Shown in pieces: positions 41,154 through 61,161 of a DNA stretch of 64,000 bases. The notes beneath the pieces were generated by a model. The model was not told the DNA's origin. It did no database searches and saw only the letters and a list, made by a program, of their open reading frames with translations. Position 1 is the first letter of the stretch, and each line of letters begins with the position of its first letter. The position numbers and the translations under genes were made by a program. Origin of the DNA: a virus (taxonomy: Duplodnaviria > Caudoviricetes); the IMG/VR virus record IMGVR_UViG_3300027759_003166; one strand, given 5' to 3'.

Positions 41154-41170
41154 TTAAGTTTTTCCTATTA

Positions 41171-41554
41171 TTAGGGTTGATTAACAAATGTAAGTGTGGC
41201 ACCATTCTCGCCATCTTCACTTACGTCAATGATGGTCTTACGACCAGGGTACCTTGCGGTAATTGTCGTGTTAAGTTCACGAGCAATCATTTCACAAGAT
41301 TTGTGGTTGAGTTCAAGAATGCCATCATTGTAGCACTTCTCAAGCCAACGCTTAAACTGGATAAATTCAATATCGCGGTCATCTTGGAAGACCTCAATAG
41401 AAACTTTAAAATGGAAAATGTGTCGATGTGGAGTTCCAAGGAAACTTACATCATATTCGTCGCCTGTGGCCAACTTAGGATCAGTTGCGGCTGCGGGATA
41501 GCAGTGAATACCTTCTTTTTGAAATTTCACCCAGATAACTGATAAATCGTTCAT
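41171..41554 (-). CDS. dpdL: QueD-paralog T-fold protein (DpdL-like)
   Basis: GIH...LGTPHRHIF...SCEMIA...VSEDGENGA aligns by eye with QueD, but has LxxxHRHxF in place of CxxxHGH. As I recall it, that is the signature described for the phage CDG decarboxylase DpdL; an HMM check is needed. Confidence 0.6.
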   Translation of the reverse strand: MNDLSVIWVKFQKEGIHCYPAAATDPKLATGDEYDVSFLGTPHRHIFHFKVSIEVFQDDRDIEFIQFKRWLEKCYNDGILELNHKSCEMIARELNTTITARYPGRKTIIDVSEDGENGATLTFVNQP

Positions 41555-42057
41555 TTAATTACTTCGTCTTTGGTATATTGAGACCAGTCTGTAAAGGTCT
41601 CACGGGTTAATAAATTGTGTAGGCTATGACACCACACACCGGGGTTTGTCGACTTGAAGTTGTTGTCGTCAAGTTTAATTATAGCATTATAACCTAGTTG
41701 TTGTAAATAGGGCAGTTTCACCGAAATCATTGGAATGAAATTATGATACTCAGCAAATCCAGTTTCTAACAATCCTTCTACACACTTAACATCTACGTCC
41801 AATGTACATTGATAATCTCTGTTAAGGAAATACTTGATCATATTTTCCCAGTCTACCCAACCACGAGCATTGGTGTCATAATTAGGAAAACTTTGATTAG
41901 CACCAAAGTAGATATGCTCGCAGCCGTTGAGTTTGGCAGCAATAGCATCTACATCTTGTACACCAACAACAAACAATGTTCTCTTACCGTATGCAGGAGT
42001 ATGTTCTACTTCCGTACCGTAGAAGAAGTCTGCGTTTTCGTGTCCTTCTCTTTCCAT
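41551..42057 (-). CDS. Hypothetical protein (~168 aa) inside the deazaguanine cluster
   Basis: ATG at 42057 is 1 nt after the dpdA stop; ATGA overlap with the dpdL-like gene. Confidence 0.7.
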   Translation of the reverse strand: MEREGHENADFFYGTEVEHTPAYGKRTLFVVGVQDVDAIAAKLNGCEHIYFGANQSFPNYDTNARGWVDWENMIKYFLNRDYQCTLDVDVKCVEGLLETGFAEYHNFIPMISVKLPYLQQLGYNAIIKLDDNNFKSTNPGVWCHSLHNLLTRETFTDWSQYTKDEVIK

Positions 42058-42058
42058 T

Positions 42059-43618
42059 TTATTCTCCAAGGTCGTCGCTTAATTTCTGTAATGCTGAATC
42101 ATTAGCATCTGAAAGATCAATTTCATCAGCACGAGTAACTTCTTCAACATCAAATAATCCACCAAATAGATTATCATTCTGTCCGTTAGTGGTGTTACGA
42201 GCACCTGCAATACTGATCAAGAATGCCTTAGCAGTTGGATGCTCTAACATCTCCATGGCTTCTGTTAATGTTTTGGTATTAAACAATTCTTCAACAAAAC
42301 GATCAAAGTACAATACATTACGTGGCACCCATTCACTAAACTGATCACTGGCAAGTTCTTTGGCGTTAAGTTTCTTCCATGAACGCCAGTCTGGTTTGAA
42401 TCTTGCACTTTCGATGTCAGCATAATGATTAGCACGTTGTACTGCCTCAATATGACATTGTACATTATGTGCCATATACAATGAATAAGCAAAACTATCC
42501 CAAGAAGTTTTACCTTCTTTGCCAATCTTGTTTAACATTCCTGGAGCATAATGACAAATGTCGCCCATTACAAGTCTGCGGCCGATCTCTGATTCAAAGG
42601 GGAATGGGATATCGCTTCCTGCAAGTGCTTTGTTGTCTGGGGCTTTTTCCATAACAACACTGAACTTTTTCGAAGTGTGGATTGGGTTTGTGTAAACGAG
42701 TCCGTGTGCTGTTGCGACAAACGGTGAGGCGCAGTCAAAAGATATGGTAACTTCTTCATTAATATGTTTCCTGAGTTGTCGTTGAATTGAAGTTAGATAG
42801 CAAGCCCAATCTAACTGTGCTGTACCCAAGAAGTGGATCCAGTTCTTGCCTGTGAGCATGCCTTCCTCGCGCATGATCATCAAACGCTTTAAAGTGATGT
42901 CCATCTTACTCATATTGACACCACCCATTGCCCAACCCTCTGCTGCTTTATCTCCCCATACAGCAGGGTCACTATATTCTTTAACACCTTCATACCAAGA
43001 CTGTGCGCTATGCCAATCGCTGCCTTGTAAAACATTTAACCACTTGGTCTTACCTAACCGATTCTTTAAAAAGTAATCGTTATTGAAACGAGTTTTTTGT
43101 AAACAATCAGCAGGACTTGTTAATCCGGTTCTTGCTTGATTATTCTTATCACAGGCCCAAATAGGCACATCCAACATCATTGACCAGTCAGCAGTTAATT
43201 CTAACCAAGCAATAATAGAATCACGAGTTTTGTTGGCTGCTTTACCTTCAAAGTCTTGCCAATCAAACTTTAAAATGCCTTTACCAATCTGATATCCACC
43301 TGAGTCACCTAAGATCATAGTTTTAGCATGATTACGATCGTGTATCATGACTTCTTGTACCAAACTTTTTTCTATATCTAACTGTGCATGACCGGCAGAG
43401 TATAGACCATAATTATAAGTAAAGTATCCTTGCTCTTCGTTTAAGAAGTTCATACCTTCGATACCACGATCAAATCCTTTAGGGATACGATCCTTGGGTA
43501 CAAAATCACTTAGTCGTTGTTTGGCAACGTAGGTGCTGTAGAAACTGCTGATTGCTGGCAAATAGCAGGCATAATCCCTATTCAGGGGCGATAAATCAAC
43601 TGGTGGATTACTTTTCAT
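42059..43618 (-). CDS. dpdA: DNA-guanine transglycosylase (TGT family, DpdA-like)
   Basis: ILGDSGGYQ (TGT DSGG motif), MMLDVP, VLQG, IHFLGT, ISFDCASP; probable start MKSNPP at 43618, 4 nt after the clamp stop. Confidence 0.8.
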   Translation of the reverse strand: MKSNPPVDLSPLNRDYACYLPAISSFYSTYVAKQRLSDFVPKDRIPKGFDRGIEGMNFLNEEQGYFTYNYGLYSAGHAQLDIEKSLVQEVMIHDRNHAKTMILGDSGGYQIGKGILKFDWQDFEGKAANKTRDSIIAWLELTADWSMMLDVPIWACDKNNQARTGLTSPADCLQKTRFNNDYFLKNRLGKTKWLNVLQGSDWHSAQSWYEGVKEYSDPAVWGDKAAEGWAMGGVNMSKMDITLKRLMIMREEGMLTGKNWIHFLGTAQLDWACYLTSIQRQLRKHINEEVTISFDCASPFVATAHGLVYTNPIHTSKKFSVVMEKAPDNKALAGSDIPFPFESEIGRRLVMGDICHYAPGMLNKIGKEGKTSWDSFAYSLYMAHNVQCHIEAVQRANHYADIESARFKPDWRSWKKLNAKELASDQFSEWVPRNVLYFDRFVEELFNTKTLTEAMEMLEHPTAKAFLISIAGARNTTNGQNDNLFGGLFDVEEVTRADEIDLSDANDSALQKLSDDLGE

Positions 43619-44412: not shown

Positions 44413-47085
44413 TTATTCAAAGCTGAATAATGAACCAAAATTATTTGTTTGTGTAGTAGATTCTAGATCCCACTCTAGAACTCCGATAAGATTATCGAGT
44501 TTATTATTAATAATAACAGTTTCCATATCAGCGTGATCAAATGGTAAGTCTTGAAACCATTTAGGTAGTCGTAGTTCGTCAACCGGATATGCCACGCTGG
44601 TATAGCCAAGTGGATTATCTTTTAACTTACAAACAATTACTTTCATACCATCGACAATATTGGTGCTGTATTTGTCACCATTCATACGTTTAAGAGTATT
44701 CCAGTTGATACTAGCACGAACATGTCCGGGCATATTTGCTTTACCTGCCTTACGTTCTTTTTCTTGATATTCAGCAATGTTGTTGGCACGTTTAGGACTA
44801 CCCTTCTCCCATCCAGGTCGTGCTTTAAATTCAGTTCTAAATTCATTAATCATATCAAGAATTTCTTCTTCCTGACTACCATTTAGAACTTTGGTTAGTA
44901 CTTCTTCAAGAAACTTCTGCATGAATTCTGGAGTATCGCTACGTTTCAAATCTAAACCCATGGCTTTAATTTTGCCAGGTTTAGTATCACTGTCATATCT
45001 CTTGCCATCCTTGTCATAGTACAATACAGCATAACGCTTTTTGGTAATAAACAAGCCTTTGATAGCAACAATTTCACGTCCTGCTTTAATAACTTCACCA
45101 CGTGATTTTGGACAGTGGAATGTATCTAACATGAATTGTGGAAATGTAGCATTAACATTATCTGCAATTGTATTGTATAGTTGTATAGCAATATCTTTAT
45201 CCCAAGGTAGTAATTTCTTTTGAATATCAATCTTTAATGTATTGTAGGCAGAGAAGTAACAACTGTCTGTATCACCATATATAATACTTTTACCAACGTG
45301 ATCAAAATCACCTGTAATAACTTCATTAACTTTACCTGCCATATGGCGAGCAATGGCACGACCGGTAAGTGTGGTACTTTGTCCAATACGCTTGTCAAAG
45401 AATCTGCAACCTGGATTCAAAATAGCACCGTACAAACTATTCAAGTTAATCTTCTTAACCAGTTGTCGTTTGTCCCAGTATTCTTCTTCAATCTTATTGC
45501 CGGCATCGATTGCTGCTTTAAGTTTCTTCTGCATGTCTTTACGCTCACTGTACCAGCGAGCCAGCAAGCCGGGAATAATACCTTCTTGCTCATGGGTAAA
45601 GATTGTGCCATTTGCACTGAGCATCCATGGGTTATTACTTTCATATATTAATCTATAAGCCTCGGCACCGCTTAGTATATCATACTCGCCATTTTCCCAA
45701 TCAATGGTAATTTCAAATGCACGATCTTGTCGCATTACTGCTTCGAATTCTAAGCTGCCAAACATACCTTCCCATGCAGCCGCAAAGGATTTTTTATCCA
45801 ATGTTGTTTGTTTATGAATAAATTCATCGGTATTAGTTTGTCGTATTTGTCCAACAATGGTTTCTGGACCCATATTCAATGCACGAATAACACTGGGATA
45901 TAGACTGTTAATGTCCATGCTTCCGATGTAATCATGTAATCCTTTTTTAGGATATGCTACATAAGCACCTGCGGCTTGATTGTTTTCAGTCTCATCACGC
46001 TTGGCACGACTTGGAACAATTAACCCTCTGTGATGTGCTTCATTAACAATTGCTTGTTCTGTTACTGCCACGGCACCCATGGTGGTCTGTAGCAATACAG
46101 TACATTCGTGTGCTAGTGTATTGGCAAGATCTATAAACTTTAGTTTCTTATCTAACTTATCAAGTAGTGCGGTATCTTGTCTATTGTATTCAATGAACTT
46201 GCGGAAGTCTTTATTATAAAGTTGATCCAGTGTACCTTCGTAGACAGTCTTGCTCTCACCTACTTCCATCTCTCCAATGGCATCGAGCCTGTAGGTATGG
46301 CGTTCTTCGTAGGTGTATTTCCTGTACAGTTCGAGACTGTCCAAATGAACGCGACCAATAAGATCATAAGTAACAGCCTGTTTCCCATATTTCTCGTATT
46401 CTCTCTTTTTTGGAAATTGATCCCACAAACAAAATCTGCGTGTATCTTCTTTGCTCAATACCTTAGTGACTCTATTAACAGTATAAGGAATATCAAAACC
46501 TTCACTATTCCAACCGCTTAATACATCAGCATCTTCAATTAATGTTAGAAATGCATCTAACATCTCTGCTTCTGTTTCAAACAACACAGTATTAGGAAAG
46601 TCCTTGACCTGTTCCTTAGCCTGCTCCATGGTTAGAGTCTTGGGTGGAACAGCAAAACATACCAGTGTGTCTAACCATTGTAAGTGAACAGCGATCGCAG
46701 TGATGGGCATAAAAGCATCTTCAGGAGTGCTATAGCCACGTTCCGGATCAAAGTCTACCTCAATGTCAAAAAATGCTACGTGTAATTTTGGTGGATCAAT
46801 GCCGAGATAATGATCTTCCAAACAGCGGAATGCTGGTTTGATATCGCTTTCGTAGAGTCTACGTTCGCCGTGGATGCGTAGTTCTTTTTGAAAGTCCTTG
46901 TTATTTCTACAAGTAACTTTATTTAGATTCTCACCGTAGATTGATTTGTACTTACCCTTTTGATCAGGATAATAAAAGATAAATTTGGCAGGATATTCTT
47001 GATAGATTCTACCCTTCTTTGCATCGCGCTCAACTACCTTAACAATATCTTTGTCGCGATCCCACCATGCGTCAACATATGACAT
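44413..47085 (-). CDS. Family B DNA polymerase (T4 gp43-like)
   Basis: Exo I FFDIEVD, Exo II GWNSEGFD, Exo III YNRQD; Pol DINSLYPS, KINLNSLYG, YGDTDS. Confidence 0.97.
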   Translation of the reverse strand: MSYVDAWWDRDKDIVKVVERDAKKGRIYQEYPAKFIFYYPDQKGKYKSIYGENLNKVTCRNNKDFQKELRIHGERRLYESDIKPAFRCLEDHYLGIDPPKLHVAFFDIEVDFDPERGYSTPEDAFMPITAIAVHLQWLDTLVCFAVPPKTLTMEQAKEQVKDFPNTVLFETEAEMLDAFLTLIEDADVLSGWNSEGFDIPYTVNRVTKVLSKEDTRRFCLWDQFPKKREYEKYGKQAVTYDLIGRVHLDSLELYRKYTYEERHTYRLDAIGEMEVGESKTVYEGTLDQLYNKDFRKFIEYNRQDTALLDKLDKKLKFIDLANTLAHECTVLLQTTMGAVAVTEQAIVNEAHHRGLIVPSRAKRDETENNQAAGAYVAYPKKGLHDYIGSMDINSLYPSVIRALNMGPETIVGQIRQTNTDEFIHKQTTLDKKSFAAAWEGMFGSLEFEAVMRQDRAFEITIDWENGEYDILSGAEAYRLIYESNNPWMLSANGTIFTHEQEGIIPGLLARWYSERKDMQKKLKAAIDAGNKIEEEYWDKRQLVKKINLNSLYGAILNPGCRFFDKRIGQSTTLTGRAIARHMAGKVNEVITGDFDHVGKSIIYGDTDSCYFSAYNTLKIDIQKKLLPWDKDIAIQLYNTIADNVNATFPQFMLDTFHCPKSRGEVIKAGREIVAIKGLFITKKRYAVLYYDKDGKRYDSDTKPGKIKAMGLDLKRSDTPEFMQKFLEEVLTKVLNGSQEEEILDMINEFRTEFKARPGWEKGSPKRANNIAEYQEKERKAGKANMPGHVRASINWNTLKRMNGDKYSTNIVDGMKVIVCKLKDNPLGYTSVAYPVDELRLPKWFQDLPFDHADMETVIINNKLDNLIGVLEWDLESTTQTNNFGSLFSFE

Positions 47086-47736: not shown

Positions 47737-47765
47737 AGTATATACTACGCAAGGAGTTCTGTCAA
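47737..47765 (-). promoter_or_regulatory. Sigma70-type promoter
   Basis: Minus strand TTGACA-N17-TATACT. Confidence 0.8.
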
Positions 47766-47773: not shown

Positions 47774-48316
47774 TTATAAACGAGCGTCTATAATGTTCCA
47801 ATTGATAATTTTCCAATGATTATTTAGATAACCTTTTTTATCGGCTTGGTAATCCAATGACCAAGCATGTTCCCAAGCATCAATTAAAACAATAATATCT
47901 TTCTTTATAGAATGATTGGGAATTATTTTTATATCACCATTGCTTGATAGATAGCACCAGCCACTTCCTTGAATGGACATAAACGATTTGGTAAATTCTT
48001 CTTTGAAGTTATCAAAAGATTTAAAATGTTGATCAATAAACTCTTTGGATGCACCAATTGGTGTATTTTCTTCATCTGGAATCTGTAGTTGTGGAAAGTA
48101 TATACTATGTAAGTAAGCACCTGCTTCATTAAAGTCTAGATCACCTTCGCCGCTGTTATAGCGATTAACATAGGTTCTGTATAGTTTGCCATAATGATAA
48201 TCTATAGCATCTTCACTTAACACAGGTTCTAATGCATCTCGGGCATAGGATAATTTCACTTGTTCAAGTGTTTTGATCTCTTTGCCTTCTACTACATATT
48301 TTATAAAATTAAACAT
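47774..48316 (-). CDS. sod: Fe/Mn superoxide dismutase
   Basis: YARDALEP...DYHYGK, YLHSIYF, GSGW, DAWEHAW; all four metal-ligand positions present. Confidence 0.88.
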   Translation of the reverse strand: MFNFIKYVVEGKEIKTLEQVKLSYARDALEPVLSEDAIDYHYGKLYRTYVNRYNSGEGDLDFNEAGAYLHSIYFPQLQIPDEENTPIGASKEFIDQHFKSFDNFKEEFTKSFMSIQGSGWCYLSSNGDIKIIPNHSIKKDIIVLIDAWEHAWSLDYQADKKGYLNNHWKIINWNIIDARL

Positions 48317-48906
48317 TATTTCTTTTTACCTGCTTTCATATTAGCGGCCCAATGTGCTAATTGTGCTGCTCGTCCTGAATGACTTTTGGCAAACTTTCTC
48401 AAACTGCTAATACTAGCATGTTTAGGAATACCGTGCCTTGCACTATCACCTTTATCCTCGGGATGACGTCCGTCAGCAAAATTCTCTGCTACATCCTGCT
48501 GACCTTCCACAGTAAGCCTGTCTAATGCTATTGGATTTAATACAACATTCGGTTTCAAGCCTTTGGTGTTAGCATAGGCCACATACACTTGATCTGTGGG
48601 TTCTATAACAAAACTCACACAATGTTTACCGGGCCAGTCTGGTTTGCCCACACTAAACCAAATGCCTATCACAGGAATAAATGGATGTTCATCTGTGCTC
48701 AACCGACCATATTCCCGTTCGCCTGTGGCGTCACGCCGAGGTTTTAGTCCTCCACTTTTCTTAATTGCTTCTAGCCTATTGGTACAATGATAAACCCTTT
48801 GCCCCACTATGTCTTGTCCAGGAAATAGATTCGTACCAGGAACATTCTTAGGTGGTCTAACTCCCTGGTAGTTGGTAAAGTTTTCAACTAGTTCGTTGAT
48901 ACGCAT
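48316..48906 (-). CDS. Putative ADP-ribosyltransferase-fold domain fused to a basic C-terminal module
   Basis: VYHCT...IKKSGGLKP...GIWFS resembles the YHGT/I..GL.P/G.YFS ART pattern; QQDVAE precedes a K/R/H-rich tail. Confidence 0.5.
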   Translation of the reverse strand: MRINELVENFTNYQGVRPPKNVPGTNLFPGQDIVGQRVYHCTNRLEAIKKSGGLKPRRDATGEREYGRLSTDEHPFIPVIGIWFSVGKPDWPGKHCVSFVIEPTDQVYVAYANTKGLKPNVVLNPIALDRLTVEGQQDVAENFADGRHPEDKGDSARHGIPKHASISSLRKFAKSHSGRAAQLAHWAANMKAGKKK

Positions 48907-49689
48907 TTAGCAATTCCATTTACGTAATGCCAATGCCTTGCGTGTAGGTTCACCATTGGGCTTTTTCATAGGACCATCAACTCCACCCATTCTAGCACAG
49001 AATGATTTACGGCGTTTGGCGGATTTACTGCCAGCTTTTAATTTACTGGGTTTAGTGGTAACTGCCGTTTGTAGTTTGCTACCAGGGTGCTCTCTACGAT
49101 AACTAGCAACACCTTTGGCATTTAGTCCGCCAGACTTGCTTTTGCCGGCCTTACGATGCCACGCAGCAGATTCATTTAATTCATCTTCTAAAAACGTATC
49201 AGCAAACTTTTCGCATAGTGCTCTAATGTCTGAGTTGTTTGTTTCTTGTAGAGTAAATTCTCTTTCTTCGTGTTCGTCGTCACCTTGGCTTGGATCCATA
49301 TAACCGCAATATACTTTACGTATGATAGAATTATTGATTAGATCGGTACAACTATCTCCGTGCCTTTCTTGTGCAGTTTCATCACTAAATTCACTGCAAG
49401 GACTCAGCGTAGTAATAAGAATACTGCCTTCTGGAATGTCACCATATTTTCTATCATAGGCTTCCATGGCTGCTTTCTCTGCATGAACATGTAAATCGCC
49501 TTGCATATAATTCAATCCTAAAACTAAATTATTGTCAGGATCTAATACAGCAGCAGCAACCATGCCGTAACGTTCGCTATCCCTTTTCTGGCCTTCAATA
49601 ACCAGTTTGCAGAGTTTAACCAAGATACCGTCCAACTTGGTTAGATTGCGTATCTCGTAGTCAGTTTGGTCAAACTCTGTAAATCTCAT
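48907..49689 (-). CDS. Zn-dependent cytidine/dCMP-deaminase-fold protein fused to a basic C-terminal module
   Basis: HAE...TLSPC...C zinc motif, with VAAAVL and KVYCGYMDP; after ELNE a separate K/R-rich module (SAAW...RRKSFCARM...RKWNC). Confidence 0.75.
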   Translation of the reverse strand: MRFTEFDQTDYEIRNLTKLDGILVKLCKLVIEGQKRDSERYGMVAAAVLDPDNNLVLGLNYMQGDLHVHAEKAAMEAYDRKYGDIPEGSILITTLSPCSEFSDETAQERHGDSCTDLINNSIIRKVYCGYMDPSQGDDEHEEREFTLQETNNSDIRALCEKFADTFLEDELNESAAWHRKAGKSKSGGLNAKGVASYRREHPGSKLQTAVTTKPSKLKAGSKSAKRRKSFCARMGGVDGPMKKPNGEPTRKALALRKWNC

Positions 49690-49738
49690 TTCTTTTTCAC
49701 CTTAGGCTGTCTTGCTTTATATAAGGCCGCTGTGGCCA

Positions 49739-50725
49739 TTACTTTTTTTTTTCTGGGGTCTTATTTTTAAATTGGTGATACTTATTTGGATCAGCATTTT
49801 GGAAGTTATCAACCCAAGCATCTAAATCCATAGTAGGTTCCAATTGTCTCTCTACCATTTGCTGTAGTGATTCAAAGTATGGATCACCTTCCGCCACACC
49901 TTGCTTGCGACTTTGGATAACTGTTCCACTTTGTTTTAAATATTTTATTACTTGTTTTCTAATTTGATTTGGATCAGTTAAACCGCCATCTAAACAATTA
50001 TCAACTATTTCAATAGCCAATTGTTGATCCATATCATCAATTAAATTAAATTCTTTTATAAAATGATTTCCCATCTTAATTGCTTCTGGACTATACATTC
50101 CTTCATGATCACCCTCCTCCATACCTTGCTCTTCTTTTCTTTTACCAAATGTAGCATGTACAAGTTGATCTAATTTTGCATGGAAATTAGTTTCAGCATC
50201 TTTGCTAAGTCCTGCATCACCTTCCGCCACACCTTGCTGCTCACCGTTGATACTTTGTAGCACACTATTCAAGTAGTCTGCGGCTTTAGTAATTTTACTT
50301 TGTTGCCAAGCATCAAGTCCTTCTTGTTCGCTATAACGTTGTACCATGTCTAATAATGATTGAGCATTTTTAGCAATGCTCATTAGTTCGCTACTGGCCA
50401 TTTGTATTTCGTGATCAGGATGATCTCTGTCTTCCATAAAAGGTTTTTTATGTTTTTCTTTGCGTGGAATAGTTTTGCTTTTATCTTTGTGAGCACCGGC
50501 ACCTGCCGTTTTGGCATTCTTAGCAACAAAGTTTCTTGGAGTACTTGCTGGAACAGTTTTCTTATCTGCTTCTTGTGCAATTAGATTATTACCACGTTTG
50601 CGTGTACCGCCTATGGGCATACTAACACTGGCTACACTACCTGAACTGGTGCCGCCTCCACTAGCATTTTCTAATACATAACGAGTTACCTCGCCTTGTG
50701 ATAATTTTTTAAATTCGTTGTTCAT
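49739..50725 (-). CDS. Modular protein with QGVAEG junctions; probably extends to 49686 across a frameshift in an A10 tract
   Basis: ATG at 50725 overlaps the upstream TGA; contains QGVAEGD twice and QGMEEGD once. Confidence 0.7.
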   Translation of the reverse strand: MNNEFKKLSQGEVTRYVLENASGGGTSSGSVASVSMPIGGTRKRGNNLIAQEADKKTVPASTPRNFVAKNAKTAGAGAHKDKSKTIPRKEKHKKPFMEDRDHPDHEIQMASSELMSIAKNAQSLLDMVQRYSEQEGLDAWQQSKITKAADYLNSVLQSINGEQQGVAEGDAGLSKDAETNFHAKLDQLVHATFGKRKEEQGMEEGDHEGMYSPEAIKMGNHFIKEFNLIDDMDQQLAIEIVDNCLDGGLTDPNQIRKQVIKYLKQSGTVIQSRKQGVAEGDPYFESLQQMVERQLEPTMDLDAWVDNFQNADPNKYHQFKNKTPEKKK

Positions 50726-51063
50726 TTTGTTTTCATCCAATTTGATACAGGGCTTACTGTATGTGTTCCTTTAGGTTCAAGACTACCTCGTTGAACAATT
50801 ACTTTATTTTTAAAACCCATCTTCTTAGCAGCATTGACAATCATTTCTTCATCGACATCTGAATATGCCCATGCTGCCGGAACATCTTTAGCAGGTCCTT
50901 CTGTAGGTGCATCATGATCTGGCATACCTGCAGACATTATACCTAATCTATAAAAATCGTAGTATTGATCAGCTCCGTGAAATTGTCGCCCGTGTGGTAG
51001 TGTACGTTGTGCCTGTTTATGCAGACCTTTCTTACGTTCTATGATAAACTCAGTTGCTCTCAT
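50722..51063 (-). CDS. Hypothetical protein with MRATEFIIE leader
   Basis: 113 aa; paralog of the upstream ORF. Confidence 0.7.
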   Translation of the reverse strand: MRATEFIIERKKGLHKQAQRTLPHGRQFHGADQYYDFYRLGIMSAGMPDHDAPTEGPAKDVPAAWAYSDVDEEMIVNAAKKMGFKNKVIVQRGSLEPKGTHTVSPVSNWMKTK

Positions 51064-51430
51064 TTTTCATCCAATTTGCTACAGGACTAACGATATTAGT
51101 ATCATCGGGTTCTTTGCTCTTGCTACGCTTGGTTAATTCTTTACTATCTGTAGGAATAGTTGCCATTGCTTGTAATACCATCATATGTTCAATGTCTGTG
51201 TAAGGAAATGCTACATTGTATTTTTCCACAAAACTTGAACTATCCATATCTACTGCTTTTTTATTTGATCCATCTGCCATAGCAGTTGCCATCCAAATTC
51301 TATTCAGATGATAGGTGCGATCATACCCGCCAACATCTCGCATCCTGGTAGCACCTTGGTTGGCATTGTCCATATGATGGTGCATTTTGCCGCCCGGTGT
51401 TGCCTCTGAAATGAATTCTTTTGCTCTCAT
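51050..51430 (-). CDS. Hypothetical protein with MRAKEFISE leader
   Basis: ATG at 51430 is 4 nt after the previous stop (track start 51514 overlaps the previous gene); paralog of 50722-51063. Confidence 0.7.
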   Translation of the reverse strand: MRAKEFISEATPGGKMHHHMDNANQGATRMRDVGGYDRTYHLNRIWMATAMADGSNKKAVDMDSSSFVEKYNVAFPYTDIEHMMVLQAMATIPTDSKELTKRSKSKEPDDTNIVSPVANWMKNESN

Positions 51431-51434
51431 AGTA

Positions 51435-54400
51435 TTATTTATTACTTTTGGATATTGCTTCATTAACAATAATCTTATTGATGAGAGCATCCATAATGTT
51501 TTCAATATCTTCACTTACTGGAATACAAATGTCTTTACCGTTTTTAGTACCAGCATAACGTTTACCTTTCCAGCAGGCCTTACCGTCAACCCCTTTGATC
51601 TTTTCTTCAATGGGTTTGTCATTGTGTTGAACGCTATCACCGCCAACTAAATCTCCAGCCTGAGCAGGTTTGTTTTTCTTAGGTCCAGTATTCTTCCATT
51701 GTCCAGCAGGTCCAAGTTTGTTCTTTTTACTACCTGCAAAGTTACTTGCTGGCATCATCTTTTCGGCAACTTTCTCATCCTTCTTAGGTTCTGGTTTAGG
51801 GATACTACTTGGAGTACGAGCAAGACTTGCGTCGCTCTTAGCACGTTGTTTCTGTTCAGCATTCCATAAACGTTGAGCAGCACTCATACGAGCCTCCGCC
51901 ACACCTTGCTTTGGTTCTGGTAAGCGTAACTTTTTACGCATCTCAGGGCTTGTATCTTTTAAACGTTTCTGTTGTTCTTTATCTTGTTTTGCTTTTGCTT
52001 CTGGACGATTTCTACGCTGTTCTTCACGATCACCGCTTGGTGTACGATTATCCATCTCTGCCAAGCCTTCCGCCACACCTTCGGCCATTTTAACGTGATG
52101 TCTATCCAACTCTTGTTTCAATGCTGCTAATTTGTTTGGAGCACGAGCAATAGCATTACGGATCTCCCCGGCAACGTTCTTTGGAATCTTACTTAATACA
52201 TCATTAACAATCTGATCAACCTGTGCATTCTGTTGTCCTACTGCTGTACTTTTAGGTGGCTTAATAGCTGGCTCATCCTGCTCATCACCTGATGCTTCGA
52301 GATCCATTAAGTATCTTTCGTATTCTGCTTTATTCTGCATCCAACGACGAGCATTTCTTGTCAGTTGTGGAGCATTGATTTGTTCGCCTAACTTGGCCAA
52401 TATTGGAGGTAGATTATTAGAGATGTTGCCAAATGATCTCTTCATTTCTAATTCGCCGTCTGCTTCTTCTCCACGTAAGAAGTCACGTAAATCTACGGTT
52501 CTACGAGTATTGTATTTGCATAGGTCGTGTAGTTCATTGTGTAGTCTACCTATGTACATATTTTGCACCCAACGGCCACCAACCCCTGCTGCTACCATTC
52601 TAAAGCCACGACCTAGTTCGCCATGATTCTCCATATACTTCTTAGCCTGGAATTTCATTGTTTCATAGACATTGGTAATAGGTTCTCCGATGTCGTTGAT
52701 AATGGATCGTAGTGTGCTGTCAATACTGGTACCTTCTACTAGGGCATTTAATATTCTTTGTTCTGCTATAGGAGCAGGTTCTGGTTGTGGCACAGGTGCC
52801 TTTGGTTGTTGTATTCCCATACCTTCCCTTGTTAAATCCATTAGGTGTTTAATCCAATTAACACCTAATTTTTGTACATCAAATCCTTGGCTCCAAACGG
52901 CTAATTGCTGTTGTTCAGTGGCGTTAGGATCTTTTAATATATTTCGTAGTTTAGTAAAACTCATACCAGTACCACGTGGTGTTATTTCTAAACTTACTTT
53001 AACATGTTCATAGCCTGGAAATTTATTAACACCCTTCATTAATGCCTGTGGCATAGTAAGACCTGCTTGATCTTCACCAACCATAATAATAACATTATCA
53101 TAGCGCGGCGGCTTGCCTGGTAGTGGATTAATTAATTCGTGCTTGATCTTTTGTAGTAATGATCCACCTGCTTCATTCACGGTACTAATATTCTTAGCAT
53201 ATTCTGGATATAGTTTGTGCCAAGTTTGTACTTTAACTGCCGGTGGTATTGGATCATCTTTACCCTGTGCATTGCCAATAAACAAATATGGATCCCCACC
53301 TACTGCTGCGGCTTTCTTTAATGTGTAATCAAATAATTGCTCATGACCAATATGTCCAACAAAACTACCAATAGCAACTACCGCTGTCTTAGCATCTCCT
53401 CTTGGACGTTCTGTTCTTGCATTTACCTTAGCAGCATTCTTAGCAGTGATAACATCACGTTGTTCCTGACTGGTAACTTTAATAGGACCTAGGCGACTAT
53501 TGATAACAATACCTTCGTAGTCTTTGCCCAACATATCTTTGCCAATGATGTTAGGGTCATTGATAATTGCTTTCTCTAATGCTGCGGCCACAGGTTCCAA
53601 TGCTGCCTTAACCTGACGTCGGGCTTCTAACTTGTTGCTGGCTAACATGGCTTTTAGTTCATCGATGTTCTCAACAGGTGGAACTAATGCTGTAACATCT
53701 AATGCTTCATTTTGTGTTAGACTATTATCAATAAACATAACACTGCCTGATTGTCCTACGCTGGTTAGCTCTTGAACAATTTTGTTTGAGTTAGGTAAAT
53801 CATCACCTGTGGTAGCATCTGTGATACGGAATGGAACCAATGCAAGTTTAACACCTGCTGGTAATTTGTCGTAGTGTATACCTACAAACTTTAGTTTACC
53901 TTCTGGAGTTTCTGTGGCAAATGGTAGATACAATACTTCACAGGTAACTTGTTTATTGACTAAAAATCCAGGTCCTAACTTGCTATCAACTAACTTAACA
54001 GCGTTCATCATTTCCGTAAATAGTTCATCAAATAGTTGAGCACGACCTAATACTTCTGGATCAGTAGTACCTTTCTTTTGATGATATGCTACAAAGCCTG
54101 GTTCGTATCTAGGTTCTGTTCTACTGGTGCCCATGAAAGGCTTACCTTCAGAATTCTTACCAAATCTGCCACCAAATCCGTCTACTTTGACGTTTAAAGG
54201 AATGTTTTGCAGTTTAAAATTGCCGTTTCCGTCGTGAATTTCGTCTAATAAATCTAACAAGTCAGCAGGCTTAAGATCGTGTAAGTGTGGCATACCTTTT
54301 CGGAATTGTGCCTTTACTTGTGCTTCTTCTTTTAATGGTTTAACAGCCTTGTTTTGAAATGCAGCAGCATAAGTAGTAGCCATTTCAATTGCTTGTTTTC

Positions 54401-55544
54401 TTAAACTAGCAGCATTGGCTAACTTCATATTTTCCAACATCCAATCTATGGCAGCAAATTTAATATCGCGGTCTCTTGCCGGATCATTTTTGGTGATCAT
54501 TTGACTACCTGGTTCAAAACATATACTAAAGAAACGTTGTGCTATTTCTTCTTTCTTTTGTTCGTTGAGATATTTGGCAATCAGTTGTACTGTACCGACA
54601 AAACTATTTTTAAGTTCTTGATCATTGCCTTTGGGTTTTCTACCAAAGAAGATTTCAAATTGTTGACCAAGATTTTGTATGTATTGTCTTGCACTAGGTT
54701 CAAGCAATTGCATTACAGGAATGCCATCCTTTTCCATAGGTTGCCCAGTAGCAGGATCCATGTAAGGAACATATTTCTGACTTACACCACCACCGCTTGG
54801 ACCGCTAACAGCAAAACTATAATCACTATCAGTTACAGGTGCATCAGATATCTTTGTACTTTTCTTTAATACACGAGCAACATATTTGGTACTGGCCTGA
54901 GAATAGGGTAATGCACGATCTAAAAATTTGTGGAATACACCTTTAATGTTTTGAGATATGTCATCCCAAGAACTGCTATGACTATATGATTGCCACTCTG
55001 TGGGTAATCCTGTTTCGGCTTCATGTGCTCCGTATTCAAAGTCAATTTGAATCTTAACAGGTAAATCTTTTAATTTGATCTCCCATAGGCTAACCCATTG
55101 ACTATTACCTGGAGTAAATCCCAACAACATGGCGTTGCTGAACATTTTACCTGTGTTATTTTGTAAGAATTGTCTAATTGTTTCAGCATGTTTGTCAGTT
55201 GCTTGTGTATCAATATCGCCTACCTTGGGTTTGACTCGGACAAATTCTTCATCAGATATTTTCTTATCCATGAATTGTAAAGTACTGCCGCTTAGAAACT
55301 TTTGAGTCTCTACAGAATTCTCATGCCAAAGCGGTTCTTTGAATTGCTGAGTAAATGCATCATTAATTGAATGTAGTGTTTGACTTACTACATCTTGTAC
55401 ATAACTACGGTCATGAACATGTAGATCTAATTCTTGTGCTTGATGATCACCTGGTACCCCTTGCCACCCTGGACTTTGGCTAGATACATTGCCACCTTCG
55501 GATAATGCTAGTTTAGGATTTCTAAATAGTTCAGATAAGTTCAC
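51435..55544 (-). CDS. 1369-aa multidomain protein: Pol-beta-type nucleotidyltransferase + ATP-dependent ligase-like domain + HIGH nucleotidyltransferase + C-terminal modules
   Basis: SGS...GDID...QIDFE; KVDG, CEVLY, EGIVI, IKV (ligase motifs I, III, IV, V); GSFVGHIGHEQL...IIMVGEDQ; GTG start. Confidence 0.75.
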   Translation of the reverse strand: MNLSELFRNPKLALSEGGNVSSQSPGWQGVPGDHQAQELDLHVHDRSYVQDVVSQTLHSINDAFTQQFKEPLWHENSVETQKFLSGSTLQFMDKKISDEEFVRVKPKVGDIDTQATDKHAETIRQFLQNNTGKMFSNAMLLGFTPGNSQWVSLWEIKLKDLPVKIQIDFEYGAHEAETGLPTEWQSYSHSSSWDDISQNIKGVFHKFLDRALPYSQASTKYVARVLKKSTKISDAPVTDSDYSFAVSGPSGGGVSQKYVPYMDPATGQPMEKDGIPVMQLLEPSARQYIQNLGQQFEIFFGRKPKGNDQELKNSFVGTVQLIAKYLNEQKKEEIAQRFFSICFEPGSQMITKNDPARDRDIKFAAIDWMLENMKLANAASLRKQAIEMATTYAAAFQNKAVKPLKEEAQVKAQFRKGMPHLHDLKPADLLDLLDEIHDGNGNFKLQNIPLNVKVDGFGGRFGKNSEGKPFMGTSRTEPRYEPGFVAYHQKKGTTDPEVLGRAQLFDELFTEMMNAVKLVDSKLGPGFLVNKQVTCEVLYLPFATETPEGKLKFVGIHYDKLPAGVKLALVPFRITDATTGDDLPNSNKIVQELTSVGQSGSVMFIDNSLTQNEALDVTALVPPVENIDELKAMLASNKLEARRQVKAALEPVAAALEKAIINDPNIIGKDMLGKDYEGIVINSRLGPIKVTSQEQRDVITAKNAAKVNARTERPRGDAKTAVVAIGSFVGHIGHEQLFDYTLKKAAAVGGDPYLFIGNAQGKDDPIPPAVKVQTWHKLYPEYAKNISTVNEAGGSLLQKIKHELINPLPGKPPRYDNVIIMVGEDQAGLTMPQALMKGVNKFPGYEHVKVSLEITPRGTGMSFTKLRNILKDPNATEQQQLAVWSQGFDVQKLGVNWIKHLMDLTREGMGIQQPKAPVPQPEPAPIAEQRILNALVEGTSIDSTLRSIINDIGEPITNVYETMKFQAKKYMENHGELGRGFRMVAAGVGGRWVQNMYIGRLHNELHDLCKYNTRRTVDLRDFLRGEEADGELEMKRSFGNISNNLPPILAKLGEQINAPQLTRNARRWMQNKAEYERYLMDLEASGDEQDEPAIKPPKSTAVGQQNAQVDQIVNDVLSKIPKNVAGEIRNAIARAPNKLAALKQELDRHHVKMAEGVAEGLAEMDNRTPSGDREEQRRNRPEAKAKQDKEQQKRLKDTSPEMRKKLRLPEPKQGVAEARMSAAQRLWNAEQKQRAKSDASLARTPSSIPKPEPKKDEKVAEKMMPASNFAGSKKNKLGPAGQWKNTGPKKNKPAQAGDLVGGDSVQHNDKPIEEKIKGVDGKACWKGKRYAGTKNGKDICIPVSEDIENIMDALINKIIVNEAISKSNK

Positions 55545-55548
55545 AATA

Positions 55549-55908
55549 TTATCCTAACTTATATTTGTCTTTTTTAATATCTTCACGATAGTGATCATGA
55601 AGTCTATGGCACATATCATCTCTCATTTCTTTTGAAAACTCAGTGCCTAACTTGCCTTTTAATTCGTTATCGTGATAGTATTCTTTACAACCTTTAATTA
55701 CCATAGGCATATACATTTCTAATACTTGCTCAGGTGTACATTCATCTAAACTCTTTAGTTTACGAGCAATAGGATAGAAGTAATCTTTGTGTAGTTTATC
55801 GTGATCAATGATGTACCAAAATAATTCGTCGGCACGTTTATCATCGTCGGTGTCTTTGCCACGTTGGCTTATTTGTATAGGCTGATTAAAGAATTCTGTG
55901 AGTTTCAT
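55549..55908 (-). CDS. Hypothetical protein with MKLTEFF leader
   Basis: 119 aa; first gene after the TAAATA motif. Confidence 0.7.
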   Translation of the reverse strand: MKLTEFFNQPIQISQRGKDTDDDKRADELFWYIIDHDKLHKDYFYPIARKLKSLDECTPEQVLEMYMPMVIKGCKEYYHDNELKGKLGTEFSKEMRDDMCHRLHDHYREDIKKDKYKLG

Positions 55909-55915
55909 AATATGG

Positions 55916-55925
55916 TATTTATTTA
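55916..55925 (-). promoter_or_regulatory. Putative late promoter (two overlapping TAAATA)
   Basis: Minus strand TAAATAAATA ending 7 nt before the ATG at 55908. Confidence 0.55.
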
Positions 55926-56195
55926 AGTTTGTTCTTCCAGATAATAACTACACCCTGGTATACCGTGTTGGCTATATCTCAAATTCCTCTCCATTGGATA
56001 AGTTCTGCACCCATCAGGCCTTGTTTCGTATATTTTGCATCGGCGAAATTCTTCATCAAAATGCTCGCACCATCGTGTAGTATACTCAACATTACCTGGT
56101 TTATAAACGCGAACTTTACAACATCCTGTATTACATCCGCCAAATGGATCACAAAAACCTTTGACCACAGGATTAATCCAAATAATCTCATTCAT
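55923..56195 (-). CDS. YkgJ-like cysteine-cluster (CxxCxxCC-type) protein
   Basis: CDPFGGCNTGCC...CEHF...CKIYETRPDGCRTYP...C; ATG at 56195 in a TAATG overlap with the fibre stop. Confidence 0.7.
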   Translation of the reverse strand: MNEIIWINPVVKGFCDPFGGCNTGCCKVRVYKPGNVEYTTRWCEHFDEEFRRCKIYETRPDGCRTYPMERNLRYSQHGIPGCSYYLEEQT

Positions 56196-59100
56196 TATAC
56201 CCACGCAAAGTATGTTAAATTAATTGCCGCAGCGTCAACAGCACCACCCCAGTTATGGAATGTTACACTTAATGTATTGGTACTACTTACCCATGCTGCT
56301 GCAACAAATACCCCTGCTGGTAATGTAGTACCAGGTGTAACTACTACTTTATGATTTGTGGTTAATCCTGTTACTGTAACAGTTTGTGTTCCGATAGACT
56401 GTTTTCCAAGGCTTGCAGGATCAATACTAACTTGTCCTGCTTTAATATTAGTTATACCTAAAAGTGAAACTGCTTGTGCCATCAATGTAGCAGTGTTAAG
56501 GCTAACTGTTACAGCACCTGTGGATGTTGTAACAAATATGCCAGTACCTGTGCTTATGCTGGTAACACCATTTATACCATAACTTCCTTGAATACCCTGA
56601 ACACCCTGACTACCGGTTATACCTTGAATACCCTGCGTACCTTGGTTACCAGTATTGCCTGTATTACCAGTGTTGCCTACATTACCTTGAATACCTTGAA
56701 TACCCTGCGTACCTTGGTTACCAGTATTGCCTGTATTACCAGTGTTGCCTGTATTACCTTGTATACCTTGAGTGCCCTGCGATCCGGTAATACCTTGTGC
56801 TCCGGTAATACCTTGTGCTCCGGTAATACCTTGTGCTCCGGTAATACCTTGTGCTCCGGTAATACCCTGCGTACCTTGACTGCCAGTATTGCCCTGATTT
56901 CCTTGGTTACCTTGGTTGCCTTGAATACCTTGACTACCAGCAGTACCTTGTGTACCCTGTATACCTTGTGGTCCTTGCGGTACAGCAGCACTGATTACAA
57001 TTGCACCTGTAGATGTTGATATGTAAATTCCGGATCCAGTAGTAATACTAGTAACACCGGTATTGCTAATTGTTGTACTTCCGCCTAAACTTGGACTTGC
57101 TACACTAACACCAATGCCTGCTCCAGCAGTAAATGTTATTTGACTAAATGCTAGTTTATTATTGGCAATACTGCCAGCCAACATATTGTTAGAGACTGTG
57201 CCAGTATCTGTGGTATAAACACCATTGGTCACTGTTGTTGCTAATGCTACTGCACCTGAAATCTTACTACCTGCCAACGAACCAATCCATGTAGGATTTG
57301 TATAAGTTTGATTAGCATAAACACCGTTGGTTACACTACCAGCATTACCAGATACAGTGCCAGTAACATTGCCAACCACATCACCAGTCAATGGTCCAAA
57401 GAAACCAGCACTAGTTACCGTATTAGCAACATTTAATCCATTAGCAGTAATAGTTGCTTCAATGTTTCCTGCCAGTGTTCCATTGGTGAAAAACACTATT
57501 CTATCTTCAGTAGTACCTATGGCTAGATTACCATCTTGTACAAATAGATATCCATCGTTGGCACCATTTACCTTCCAAGTGGATGTATTATAGTTACTAC
57601 CATTAATACCCATATCGATATAATAACTACCATCGTCGCCTATGTCATTGACTGCTACAAAATCAGATGATGATTGTGTTCCAGCGTTATGGTTAATGTT
57701 TACTACTTGCCCATAACTATTTAAATCATTATCAACTTGTAAAAGTGCGCCAGGGTAGAGATTATCTTCATTTAAAATACCAAACTTACCACCAGCAATA
57801 ACTCTTAAATTAGTTAATGTACTATAGGTAGCAATTAATTGTTGTGTGTTAATACCACTGCCATCAAAATCCCAATATTGTTTGGATCTATTCCATAGTA
57901 TAGAAGCAGCAAGATTAGTGCCTGTTCCTAATTGTATACCACCGCCATCAAGTTGTGATATATTAGATGCAGTTGTTCCTAATATGAGTATTGACCCTTC
58001 GACTGTATTTGGAATTAAATTAGTAAGATCACCAGTATAATTTAACGTACCATTGATATTAACATCGTTGAATGTAACATTACTTGAGGGAGCAAGGTCT
58101 TGTGGCAAACTTAATGTGATACTACCATTAGTTGATGCAGTTGCTCCGTTAACATTGATTTGATTTGCCGTACCTGCTAAGGATAAAACACCAGTACTAT
58201 CTAAACTGATAGAGTTGGCTAATCCACCACCGCTTAGACCGACACCGGCTATGACCTCAACTACGGCTACAGTGTCTAAATTATTAATCAAACTAACATC
58301 TACTGTACCAGTAAATGCTGTAGTTTGTCTTGAACGATCATAGAATGTAATACCACCATTAACATTACCATCAAAGTCTATACCTCGATCGTTGAATATA
58401 GTACTGGTTGTGATAACATTAGAACCATTGGGGGTAGTTTGTATTACTACCTGTGTGCCAGCAGTAGTATTGGTAAAGTCTTGTGTAGCCTCAACAGTAA
58501 TACGACCAATGCTTTGCACATATTGATTATCACCGTATCCTTGTGTAGAGAATCTAAGTAGGATGTCTTTGTTTTTAACGGCAGTAGGTGCTTGGACCGT
58601 TCCTCTTGCTGCACGACCTGCGATAACAGGGTAAGCACCAGTACCAAATGCATCAACACTAATCCGAGTTGCAATTCCATTCTGTCCTGTAATCTGCAAC
58701 ATTGTACCAGTAAAGTTGCGAGGTTGTTGGATACCCGCGGCATTACCAATAATGCTAAGTGCTGACTCTGATATAGAAATATTTTGTTTTGGAAATACGG
58801 TAACTAATCCCTCACGTGTAATTTCAAATACTTTATAACCATTAACATCATTCATCTTCACAGGGCGATTAAAATTAACATATCCTGTAGCAGTTGTACT
58901 ACCAACAATAATATCTCTGGCGTTATCAGCAATTATAATTTGGTTATCCTGAAATGTAAATTCACCGACCTTTAGCCCAGCAGATCCTATAATAGTAAGT
59001 ATATCATTTCTTGCGGTAATACCTACATCGTTGTCTTTAATTTCATCTTTAATAAAGATTGATCCACCGCCTAACCATAGATGTCTCCAACGATTAAGCA

Positions 59101-60462: not shown

Positions 60463-61161
60463 TTATGCCGTCATTAAGTTCTCCCGTAGTATGAATTCTT
60501 CTACTCGTTTGACATTTCCGCTGGCAAACAGCCCAATCATAGTCAAAGTTTTCTCATCTTTGACATACATAAACGGATTGTATAACCATCTATGTTTAGA
60601 TTCTAACCACTTTTTAGAATTTTTACTAATGTTTATAGTATCAGGAAACTTAGCAGCCCATTCGGCAAATGCCAATCTACCCTCCATGGACCATGATTCT
60701 TTAAGATATACTTTATACTTGTATCCATCCTTGGGCAATATATCACGCAGAATCTTCTTATGCCCATTATCTAGCATATAATTAAGTTCTTCTTCTGTAG
60801 TAGGGCCAGATATTCTTTCTACCCAAGGTGCAACTGCTTTGTAGATATTCTCCAACAATACAGGATCTTTACAAAAGATATTATAATGCTTACCTTCTAC
60901 ACGAGTTTGTAGCTGATCTTTCAATGCTAGAAACGGCTCTAACCCTGTGGTAAATGCTAATAACTGGGCTTTGTTTTCTTTGCTCAATTTATCATTACTT
61001 TGCCAACGCCATAGAGCAGGAGCCGGTTCACCAAGACAGAAATCTTTAGTTTGATCAACACCGGCCCAGCGTAATCTACTGGCCCCACTGATATAGCATT
61101 CTATCTTGTAGGGCCATTTGTTATAGAATAACTTACTGGATGGTAGCTTCTGTATCTGCAT
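60463..61161 (-). CDS. Hypothetical protein (232 aa)
   Basis: Long ORF overlapping the end of the clpA-like gene. Confidence 0.7.
   Translation of the reverse strand: MQIQKLPSSKLFYNKWPYKIECYISGASRLRWAGVDQTKDFCLGEPAPALWRWQSNDKLSKENKAQLLAFTTGLEPFLALKDQLQTRVEGKHYNIFCKDPVLLENIYKAVAPWVERISGPTTEEELNYMLDNGHKKILRDILPKDGYKYKVYLKESWSMEGRLAFAEWAAKFPDTINISKNSKKWLESKHRWLYNPFMYVKDEKTLTMIGLFASGNVKRVEEFILRENLMTA

Follow-up and report, generated by a model that had tools for sequence, protein, structure and literature searches.

The window analysed here is a stretch of 64,000 nucleotides (nt) from the IMG/VR virus record IMGVR_UViG_3300027759_003166 (Duplodnaviria; Caudoviricetes), and our subject is a cluster of eight consecutive minus-strand genes, here called g1 to g8, at positions 47,774-55,908. 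These genes encode a large multi-domain enzyme, a deaminase, a superoxide dismutase (SOD) and small basic proteins, and most of them begin with a similar short leader peptide that resembles the capsid-targeting sequence (CTS) of bacteriophage T4. The cluster is probably an internal-protein locus in the manner of T4, that is, a store of head cargo, in which the cargo is enzymatic and modular.

The first gene, g1 (119 amino acids, aa; 55549-55908), opens with MKLTEFF (leader MKLTE/FF, where a slash marks a leader or module junction, as throughout); it has no match in Pfam-, phrog- or NCBIfam-type family searches and stands first in the cluster in all relatives, with 50-92% identity in seven related loci. 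The long g2 (51435-55544) starts at a GTG and encodes 1369 aa, and its leader, residues 1-16 (MNLSELFRNPKLALSE; 55497-55544), ends in LSE directly before a conserved GGN. Two paralogues follow, g3 (126 aa; 51050-51430; leader MRAKEFISE) and g4 (113 aa; 50722-51063; leader MRATEFIIE); they share the C-terminus VSPVANWMK, and g4 is basic, with an isoelectric point (pI) of 9.6 for the mature form. By comparison with homologues, g5 (49739-50725) is a 328-aa chain of small modules, with a DUF7230-like basic module and two QGVAE/G linkers; homologues also place its true start at the ATG of codon 6 (50725), which gives it the leader MNNEFKKLSQGEVTRYVLE (MNNEF...YVLE) followed by NASGGG. The remaining open reading frames (ORFs) are g6 (48907-49689), with leader MRFTEF, g7 (48316-48906), with leader MRINELVE, and g8 (47774-48316), an Fe/Mn SOD with a ten-residue N-terminal extension, MFNFIKYVVE, which is translationally coupled to g7 through TAATG.

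A preliminary description, made by a model from the letters of the window, had counted a similar leader on six of the eight genes; a check of the ORFs and of their homologues raises the number with an M-[KR/N]-x-x-E-[FL] start to seven, and the SOD start that it had singled out is indeed a ten-residue leader of its own. When all six frames of the 64 kb were searched with the regular expression M[KRN]xxE[FLIV], there were six matches, five of them the starts of g1, g3, g4, g6 and g7; the leader of g2 was missed because of its GTG start. Chance alone would give 0.08 such starts among approximately 70 genes, against at least five seen (P(>=5) = 2e-8). Codons differ among the copies (AGA/CGT, GAA/GAG, TTC/TTT/CTA), so the leader is conserved at the peptide level; an RNA-level element was rejected on the same ground, and a signal peptide or secretion reading was rejected because the leaders have no hydrophobic stretch. 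Seventy distinct metagenomic leaders yield the consensus MRAxEFIxE, in which position 6 is F, L or I in 69. This is one residue shorter than the T4 CTS, MKTYQEFIAE, and has Arg at position 2. The T4 sequence is removed once by the prohead protease gp21 (PMC8442874) and is the only part that T4 internal proteins share (PMC3012670); the appeal of the preliminary description to this precedent, with gp21 cutting after Glu and Alt being processed, agrees with the literature (PMC8442874, PMC5694885).

The preliminary description had further proposed that leaders be counted against their location. In the window, five of the six matches are cluster starts, and in a related 221-kb contig, G001, the leaders belong to the cluster and to a few isolated genes, which start MRIHELIVE, MQIKELLAE and MKTFTQYLSE or, in an 81-aa protein beside the portal, MLLNEFIYF; each of these isolated genes has an ATAAATA motif 11-12 nt upstream.

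Judged from its homologues, the leader behaves as a detachable unit: its last residues are (L/I/V)-x-E, and a conserved core follows at once. The first domain of g2, a nucleotidyltransferase (NTase), has stand-alone homologues in Campylobacter, Vibrio and Xanthomonas phages, of which gp100 of Campylobacter phage CP220 starts MKLSELMFILE/GGN and those of Xanthomonas phage BUDD and Vibrio phage phiKT1024 start MGGN. Among representatives of the fused g2 type at 50% identity, 37 have a leader of 5-18 residues in front of the invariant GGN; its last residue (P1) is Glu in 35, and the residue two places earlier (P3) is Leu or Ile in 35. Five are leaderless, starting MGGN or MEGGN. The same holds for stand-alone relatives of the ligase-like domain of g2, where 20 of 74 start M[KIL][ST]F[KS]x[FY][LIV]xE (for example MKTFKQFLSE; 0.08 expected), one further protein starts MKTYDEFVGV, near the T4 tag and without the final Glu, and others begin at the conserved core with no leader. 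In a homologue of g5 at locus L014 the long leader is replaced by MRFTEISE.

Upstream of the leader-bearing NTase gene of CP220 lies AATAAATA, and in BUDD, where the g2 domains are four adjacent genes, the leaderless NTase copy adjoins primase/helicase; this pair of contexts counts in favour of the head-cargo reading. Leaderless homologues beside replication genes would also suit a different account, under which the cluster encodes ordinary cytoplasmic late enzymes of RNA and nucleotide metabolism and oxidative stress, with N-termini and linkers that are alike through descent and cassette recombination; the place of the cluster directly upstream of the DNA polymerase region, the Clp-type, deformylase and DnaJ proteostasis genes nearby, and the setting of the SOD gene of phage PA5oct among ClpS, Hsp20 and FtsH would suit it too. 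Such an account must nonetheless explain why the leader sits on unrelated folds (the SOD apart) in codons that differ with each copy, why it ends exactly at a protease-type motif before conserved cores and bears so close a likeness to the T4 CTS, and why two homologues, PA5oct gp223 and S-SM1 T4-GC190, were detected in virions, and we consider it unlikely.

The first of these, gp223, is the nearest phage SOD, is 40% identical to g8, and starts MNDSIKKYISIAE/; it is annotated with electrospray ionisation tandem mass spectrometry (ESI-MS/MS), an analysis made on CsCl-purified particles (PMC7318152). The MIJ3 paper makes no mention of SOD. The second, the cytidylyltransferase T4-GC190 of phage S-SM1, was detected in purified virions (PMC3037559); it starts MKKFSAFLNE/ and has weak similarity to the HxGH domain of g2, and among its neighbours are found a KWDG motif and two leaders, MNLNEL and MLSFKELQE. 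Both proteins belong to enzyme classes homologous to those of the cluster and carry a 10-13-residue extension ending LNE or IAE; they differ in being distant (25-40% identity) and in being encoded by separate genes where ours are fused, and their leaders and processing are undiscussed by the authors. In S-SM1, the genes SSM1_189-SSM1_192 (locus L037, 146446-151332) mirror the order of the g2 domains: a ligase-like gene with KWDG is accompanied by two cytidyltransferase genes and a small ORF. CTS-like leaders open three of these four genes, which suggests an unrecognised cargo locus in T4-like cyanophages.

The second regularity of the cluster lies between its modules. Domain boundaries had been described as falling at (I/L/V)-x-E sites, and homologues confirm this in g2 (LSE-16, LVE-937 and the VAE sites), g5 (the VAE sites), g6 (LNE-173) and g7 (LVE-8 and VAE-141); LKE-406 of g2 agrees with the end point of stand-alone homologues. 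The overall density of [LIV]xE in the cluster proteins is ordinary and was rejected as evidence; only the placement at module junctions is unusual. One example is g7, laid out as MRINELVE/NFTNYQ...(module A)...QQDVAE/NFADGR...(basic tail). Residues 1-141 (48484-48906) comprise the leader and module A, which has YHCT, RLST and IEPTD motifs, and residues 142-196 (48319-48483) form the tail, NFADGRHPEDKGD...AHWAANMKAGKKK, of pI 10.8, a cassette found behind many enzymes. Other modules (one HAD-like, two HExxH) stand between leader and module A or between leader and tail at the related loci L012, L013, L009 and L010, and in five g7 homologues the differing modules are always joined at ...E/NF.

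A database search with g7 found 513 metagenome proteins that share modules with it, of which 120 were listed, and the following figures refer to these 120. Most share the tail only (approximately 30% of g7 covered), and the tail is found behind deaminase, GNAT, HAD, DUF6321 or unassigned modules; 82 of the 120 proteins start M[KR]xx[ED][FLIV], and in six the leader is fused straight to the tail. Glu precedes the tail in 73 of 73 distinct contexts, and in 60 of them the P3 residue is V, L, I or M, compared with a background of 19% (p approximately 1e-26, uncorrected for relatedness). A similar direct fusion occurs at L012, where MRANEFIIE/SAAWHRKAGK... joins the leader to DUF6321 at the same junction as LNE/SAAW in g6. 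Homology breakpoints in g2 and g5 fall at KMAE/, GVAE/G, ALVE/G and xxTE/ARMSAA; BLAST breakpoints against L010, L014, L009, L012 and L007 delimit residues 938-1159 of g2 at ALVE/G and MAEGVAE/, and the C-terminal basic modules of g2 recur behind other contexts in L007, L010, L015 and L016. These modules and the tails have pI values of 9.4-11.4.

The QGVAEG linker is also conserved as DNA, with four copies of CAAGGTGTGGCGGAAGG, and recombination alone could thus explain part of the junction pattern. This bears on a second alternative, in which the proteins are packaged and lose their leader alone, while the Glu linkers stay uncut as flexible joints and DNA-level recombination sites and the tails keep the enzymes on the DNA. 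Contigs from lake RNA libraries, matched at low stringency and given low weight, join position 49907 to 52119, and so connect a GVAE linker in g5 with one in g2, and this would fit the alternative, as would the single cut beside the CTS that T4 internal proteins receive and the N4-type polyvalent proteins that are packaged uncut (PMC5512222). A recombination site alone, however, needs no hydrophobic residue at P3, which is present in 82% of non-homologous upstream contexts, and T4 itself provides cases of further cutting: both ends of Alt are cleaved (ITE-6 and LTE-619), as are many sites in gp22, and prohead proteases of the T4/phiKZ type all cut after Glu (PMC5694885). We give this alternative as a whole a rather low probability, higher than that of the cytoplasmic account above. 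Other contigs from these libraries join window positions 49178 and 49684, skipping the deaminase to give the leader-DUF6321 form seen at L012, again at low stringency. Both joints look like natural recombinants in related strains, and the contigs prove nothing about timing.

For timing, the available guide is a promoter motif. The preliminary description had reported a late-promoter motif before the cluster, and ATAAATA is found before both g1 (55916-55922, 14 nt upstream of the ATG) and g3 (51436-51442, 12 nt upstream of the ATG), on the minus strand. The motif is scarce, with seven occurrences in the window compared with approximately 39 expected and 53 in the 221 kb of G001 compared with approximately 108 (for the window, our own arithmetic from base composition). 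All seven in the window sit 11-28 nt upstream of a start codon, and the genes behind them are gp25-like, gp6-like, a neighbour of the tail fibre, a virion protein gene, one unassigned gene, g1 and g3. A pattern of this kind suits a late promoter core like that of T4, with very short leaders. The full T4 late promoter, TATAAATA, is found only twice in the window, and it is the shorter ATAAATA that is informative. The cluster ends where the next unit, an early one, begins: directly after g8 stands a putative sigma-70-type promoter, TTGACA-17-TATACT (47737-47765, minus strand), which agrees at 11 of 12 positions and is the best match in the region. By the ATAAATA motif, the cluster may be expressed late, alongside structural genes.

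A protease of the appropriate kind is encoded by a relative. Contig G001, in which g2 is 89% identical and synteny is as in the window, encodes a gp21-type (S77) prohead protease (147508-148137; PF03420, E = 2.5e-26), and its head genes run in the order portal, small core proteins (including that starting MLLNEFIYF), protease, scaffold and major capsid protein (MCP); the N-terminus of the MCP has candidate sites at ...ALLE/G and ...SLSE/S. A predicted complex of a relative's prohead protease (P0127) with residues 1-45 of g4 scored 0.00, which is no evidence either way.

A third alternative makes the leader a tag for some other late process, such as a phage Clp-type unfoldase or chaperones, with a cut after Glu-5 that would expose Phe or Leu as an N-degron. 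The near-invariance of leader position 6 would be in keeping with this, as would the genes at hand, for on the minus strand, a few kb upstream of the cluster, are genes for an ATPase of ClpA/B-like type (758 aa; 61133-63409) and for a peptide deformylase (63409-63912), and relatives have a DnaJ-like gene there as well (the corresponding block of L009 is 3360-6960). Such a tag is not known to have a precedent; the conserved (L/I/V)-x-E end at the boundary of the mature core fits a maturation protease and the T4 precedent accounts for all features. The idea is given very little credence. The Clp-like ATPase, deformylase and DnaJ-like genes are, as an observation in themselves, a proteostasis module adjoining the cargo locus.

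The candidate cargo is rich in enzymes. Residues 17-406 of g2 (54327-55496) match a Pol-beta-type NTase with a GS...GDID motif (phrog_19290, E = 4.6e-30; Atlas 0.96 to 'Nucleotidyltransferase family', NTP_transf_2). Residues 407-690 (53475-54326) have the KVDG, EGxV and K motifs of the ATP-dependent RNA/DNA-ligase-fold NTases: in an alignment of 43 sequences K47, D49, G50, E130 and Y152 are invariant and E271, G272 and K283 at least 90% conserved, the AlphaFold2 (AF2) model has a pLDDT (predicted local distance difference test) of 95.4, and Foldseek matches it to RNA ligases (8uce, 1xdn, Naegleria, T4 Rnl1/2) with E from 5e-5 and probability 1.00. This domain is a predicted member of the ATP-dependent RNA/DNA ligase superfamily, without an assigned OB or C-terminal domain. 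Residues 691-928 (52761-53474) hold an HxGH (cytidylyl/adenylyl) NTase with the motif GSFVGHIGHE (phrog_3041 'cytidyltransferase', E = 5.4e-11), followed by a Pro-rich linker ending PAPIAE; residues 938-1159 (52068-52733) are a module without assigned function, and residues 1160-1369 (51438-52067) are short basic modules (pI 9.4-10) split by LAE, GVAE, KVAE and VNE. From the set of NTase, RNA-ligase and HxGH-transferase domains we infer a role in RNA repair, and RNA repair and anti-defence appear the likeliest functions of g2. A phmmer search of PDB sequences with g2 returned nothing.

In g6, residues 1-173 (49171-49689), from leader MRFTE/F to ...DELNE/, contain a predicted CDA-fold zinc deaminase (PF00383, E = 4.7e-9, 36.5 bits against a cut-off of 25) with HAE and PC-x16-C motifs, and residues 174-260 (48910-49170) are a DUF6321 basic module of pI 11.4 (PF19846, E = 1.4e-21). 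T4-like cyanophages commonly encode DUF6321 in the interval from gp16 to gp17, as in Syn1_112, MKSFKQLRIDINE/SAWTRKEGK, and a literature search for it found no mention. In Synechococcus phage ACG-2014f (L033, 589-3231), an 880-aa, very basic repeat protein with ...FSNWRD... units ends in DUF6321 directly upstream of the large terminase gene and may be a giant internal DNA-binding polyprotein.

Module A of g7, named an ADP-ribosyltransferase (ART)-like unit in the preliminary description, leans that way without settling there: its Foldseek matches are mostly ART folds (2o0q, cholera toxin A1, KptA/Tpt1), all are weak with E of at least 0.05, the AF2 model has a pLDDT of 63, and the Atlas leads, PARP and Arr, reach 0.85-0.86, below 0.9; no H-Y-E or R-S-E catalytic triad was assigned. 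The single phmmer match of g7 among PDB sequences (E = 0.0062), a designed PPR protein, was disregarded as stray, and NCBIfam gave nothing for g1, g3, g5, g7 or the g2 pieces. The SOD of g8 scores above the cut-offs of PF02777 (80.6 bits, E = 1e-22) and PF00081 (44.3 bits, E = 2.5e-11), and NCBIfam SOD models reach E values down to 7e-26, below their equivalog cut-offs; metal ligands can be picked out by eye as His in DYHYGK and LHSIYF and Asp with His in DAWEHAW, and the hairpin domain is shortened. Its likeliest role would be protection against oxidative damage. The preliminary description had the SOD cut from a polyprotein along with the other enzymes; it is a separate gene with a divergent leader. 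In g2 and g6, disparate domains do share one polypeptide. A host takeover or anti-defence role for the whole cargo, as then proposed, is speculation, and the domain set of g2 looks more like RNA repair.

Put together, the T4-style reading would run as follows. The cluster would be transcribed late from its ATAAATA promoters, and the short N-terminal leader (MRAxEFIxE, or 10-19 residues in g2, g5 and the SOD) would carry each protein into the scaffolding core of the prohead. There a gp21-type (S77) protease would cut the leader off after the Glu of (L/I/V)-x-E and would probably also cut the Glu linkers QGVAE/G, xVxE/NF and LNE/SAAW between modules. The freed enzymes and very basic peptides would stay on the packaged DNA and exit with it at infection, delivering the Pol-beta-type NTase, the RNA-ligase-fold domain, the HxGH NTase, the zinc deaminase, possibly the ART-like module and the Fe/Mn SOD, together with DUF6321, the NFADG tail and the C-terminal modules of g2. 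Packaging combined with leader removal is on balance likely, by analogy with T4, and cleavage of the leader considered for itself likelier still; for cleavage at the internal Glu linkers, the less certain step, the chances appear about even. Every computational test agrees with the picture of packaged, processed and injected proteins drawn in the preliminary description, of which targeting, cleavage, ejection and host role are what we infer.

Several observations count against this reading. Packaging, cleavage and injection are, for this phage and its close relatives, deduced from sequence, and the gp21-type protease is assigned through G001, no such gene having been seen in the window. The Glu that always precedes NFADG may be part of the module and not of a cleavage site, and at some junctions P3 is T, P, H or R. 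Podophages without the T4-type protease have DUF6321 too. The similarity of g2 to T4-GC190 is weak, with E of approximately 3e-4 within one genome, and the PA5oct virion list also holds QueD, FolE, FtsH and a ligase, so contamination is possible. Finally, starts of the form ATG-[KR]-x-x-E-F are at control level in the cultured relatives CBB, Atu_ph07, Phosso and CP220, so the system is not checkable in a laboratory phage and the virion proteomes of these four are unusable for it.

The source of the window is most likely an uncultured freshwater jumbo myophage, related to T4 and with a T4-type head, as judged from its genes. Its DNA polymerase (44413-47085, minus strand) is a T4-type family B enzyme with 51% identity to that of Sinorhizobium phage Phosso, 45% to Atu_ph07 and 42% to the Rak2/CBB group, the nearest phages being jumbo myophages. 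Baseplate proteins resembling gp5, gp25 and gp6 are encoded in the plus-strand half of the window, as are tail fibres; an ORF of 5261 aa (7430-23215) lies within this baseplate and tail-fibre block, where the window reaches its lowest GC content (28-33%). The product of this ORF is probably a giant protein of the fibre or baseplate. The stretch 47774-55908 is present in lake and freshwater metagenomes of 13 studies, and an IMG/VR search with g2 found 12 loci of 37-99% identity. Relatives with flanking sequence have the gene order Clp-like ATPase, tail fibre, cluster, DNA-binding protein gene and polymerase; in the window too, a tail-fibre gene lies directly upstream of the cluster and the DNA polymerase region directly downstream. 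Neither megablast of the cluster nor tblastn of g4 and g7 against phages gave a match, and in Phosso no equivalent cluster was found upstream of the polymerase.

Some smaller features surround the locus. A 93-aa CxxCxxCC ORF (PF03692, putative zinc/iron-chelating; 55923-56204, minus strand) lies between a 1264-aa collagen-repeat tail fibre and g1 and overlaps the end of the tail-fibre gene. QueE-like, epimerase and glycosyltransferase genes at 37904-43618 (minus strand) suggest a 7-deazaguanine-type DNA modification cluster. Relatives carry a gene that is absent from the window (L009, 15213-15653; G001, 75458-75898), starting MEQLTQIAKVAFASEFSFALKAQNFHWNVEGS..., leaderless, with its own ATAAATA, and Dps/ferritin-like by eye only; with the SOD, it hints at a theme of oxidative protection. 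They also carry an ORF of 84-102 aa (MKQ[FY][RK]IT...) that overlaps the 3' end of g2-type genes (L009, 14946-15206, and L007, L010 and L011), with two copies in L007 and none in the window.

Among known systems, the CTS-bearing internal proteins of T4 are the closest parallel, in that diverse unrelated proteins carry a leader of about ten residues ending (L/I)-x-E (here MRATEFIIE, MRAKEFISE and MRINELVE), the genes are putatively of late type, a gp21-type protease and T4-like scaffold and MCP are present (via G001), and small basic proteins accompany enzyme cargo, as with Alt. The cargo here differs in being mostly enzymatic, multi-domain, up to 1369 aa long and encoded at one contiguous locus, with modules chained by conserved Glu linkers and ending in reusable basic tails, and no sequence homology to the bodies of the T4 internal proteins was found. 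The polyvalent proteins of phages and conjugative elements (Iyer and colleagues, 2017; PMC5512222) likewise bring enzymatic domains of unrelated kinds (NTase, deaminase, ART-like) together in single polypeptides encoded next to virion genes, and packaging and delivery with the DNA are predicted for both; HExxH modules, which may be zincin-like, occur in the relatives L010, L012 and G001 (8883), and the HExxH motif is absent from the cluster in the window. Unlike polyvalent proteins, those of the cluster have a T4-type leader, and their processing would fall to the capsid maturation protease, acting at (L/I/V)-x-E, and not to a peptidase embedded in them; that paper has no match to 'superoxide' and describes neither SOD nor the RNA-ligase fold nor basic tail cassettes. 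In phiKZ gp175 and SPN3US gp245, head-internal propeptides are removed after Glu by a T4-related protease, and phiKZ-like ejection and inner-body paralogues also share identical N-terminal propeptides (PMC5694885, PMC7411985); that is another phage lineage, with the motif (S/A/G)-x-E in place of the (L/I/V)-x-E found here and in T4. The T4 CTS system is experimentally established and the phiKZ-like cases are proven by mass spectrometry, whereas our cluster is known from its genes. What is new here is the combination of T4 CTS and polyvalent features, the linker and tail cassettes, and their breadth in environmental phages.

The CTS has so far been treated as a peculiarity of T-even phages that carries a few small anti-restriction proteins. 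The present findings, with at least 513 metagenome proteins that share modules with g7 and with similar leaders on the virion enzymes of cyanophages, suggest that T4-related phages in both lakes and oceans widely possess a CTS-type device, by which enzymes would enter the head as whole sets, among them a deaminase, a superoxide dismutase and enzymes of RNA-repair type. More tentatively, and with the balance against it, the cargo of freshwater jumbo phages may be of a plug-and-play kind, with a universal nine-residue capsid tag, a Glu linker that is at once protease site and recombination site, reusable DNA-binding tails and swappable enzymes; deaminase, GNAT, HAD, ART-like, RNA-repair and SOD proteins are all seen in this format, and the linker would then be a built-in engine for diversifying injected effectors. 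If the T4-style reading is true, the short natural tags and linkers could serve to load foreign proteins into T4-type capsids, the leader with (L/I/V)-x-E would be a sequence rule that predicts injected proteins in the genomes of uncultured phages, and environmental phages would bring counter-defence and protection of DNA and RNA into the cell early, borne by protein.

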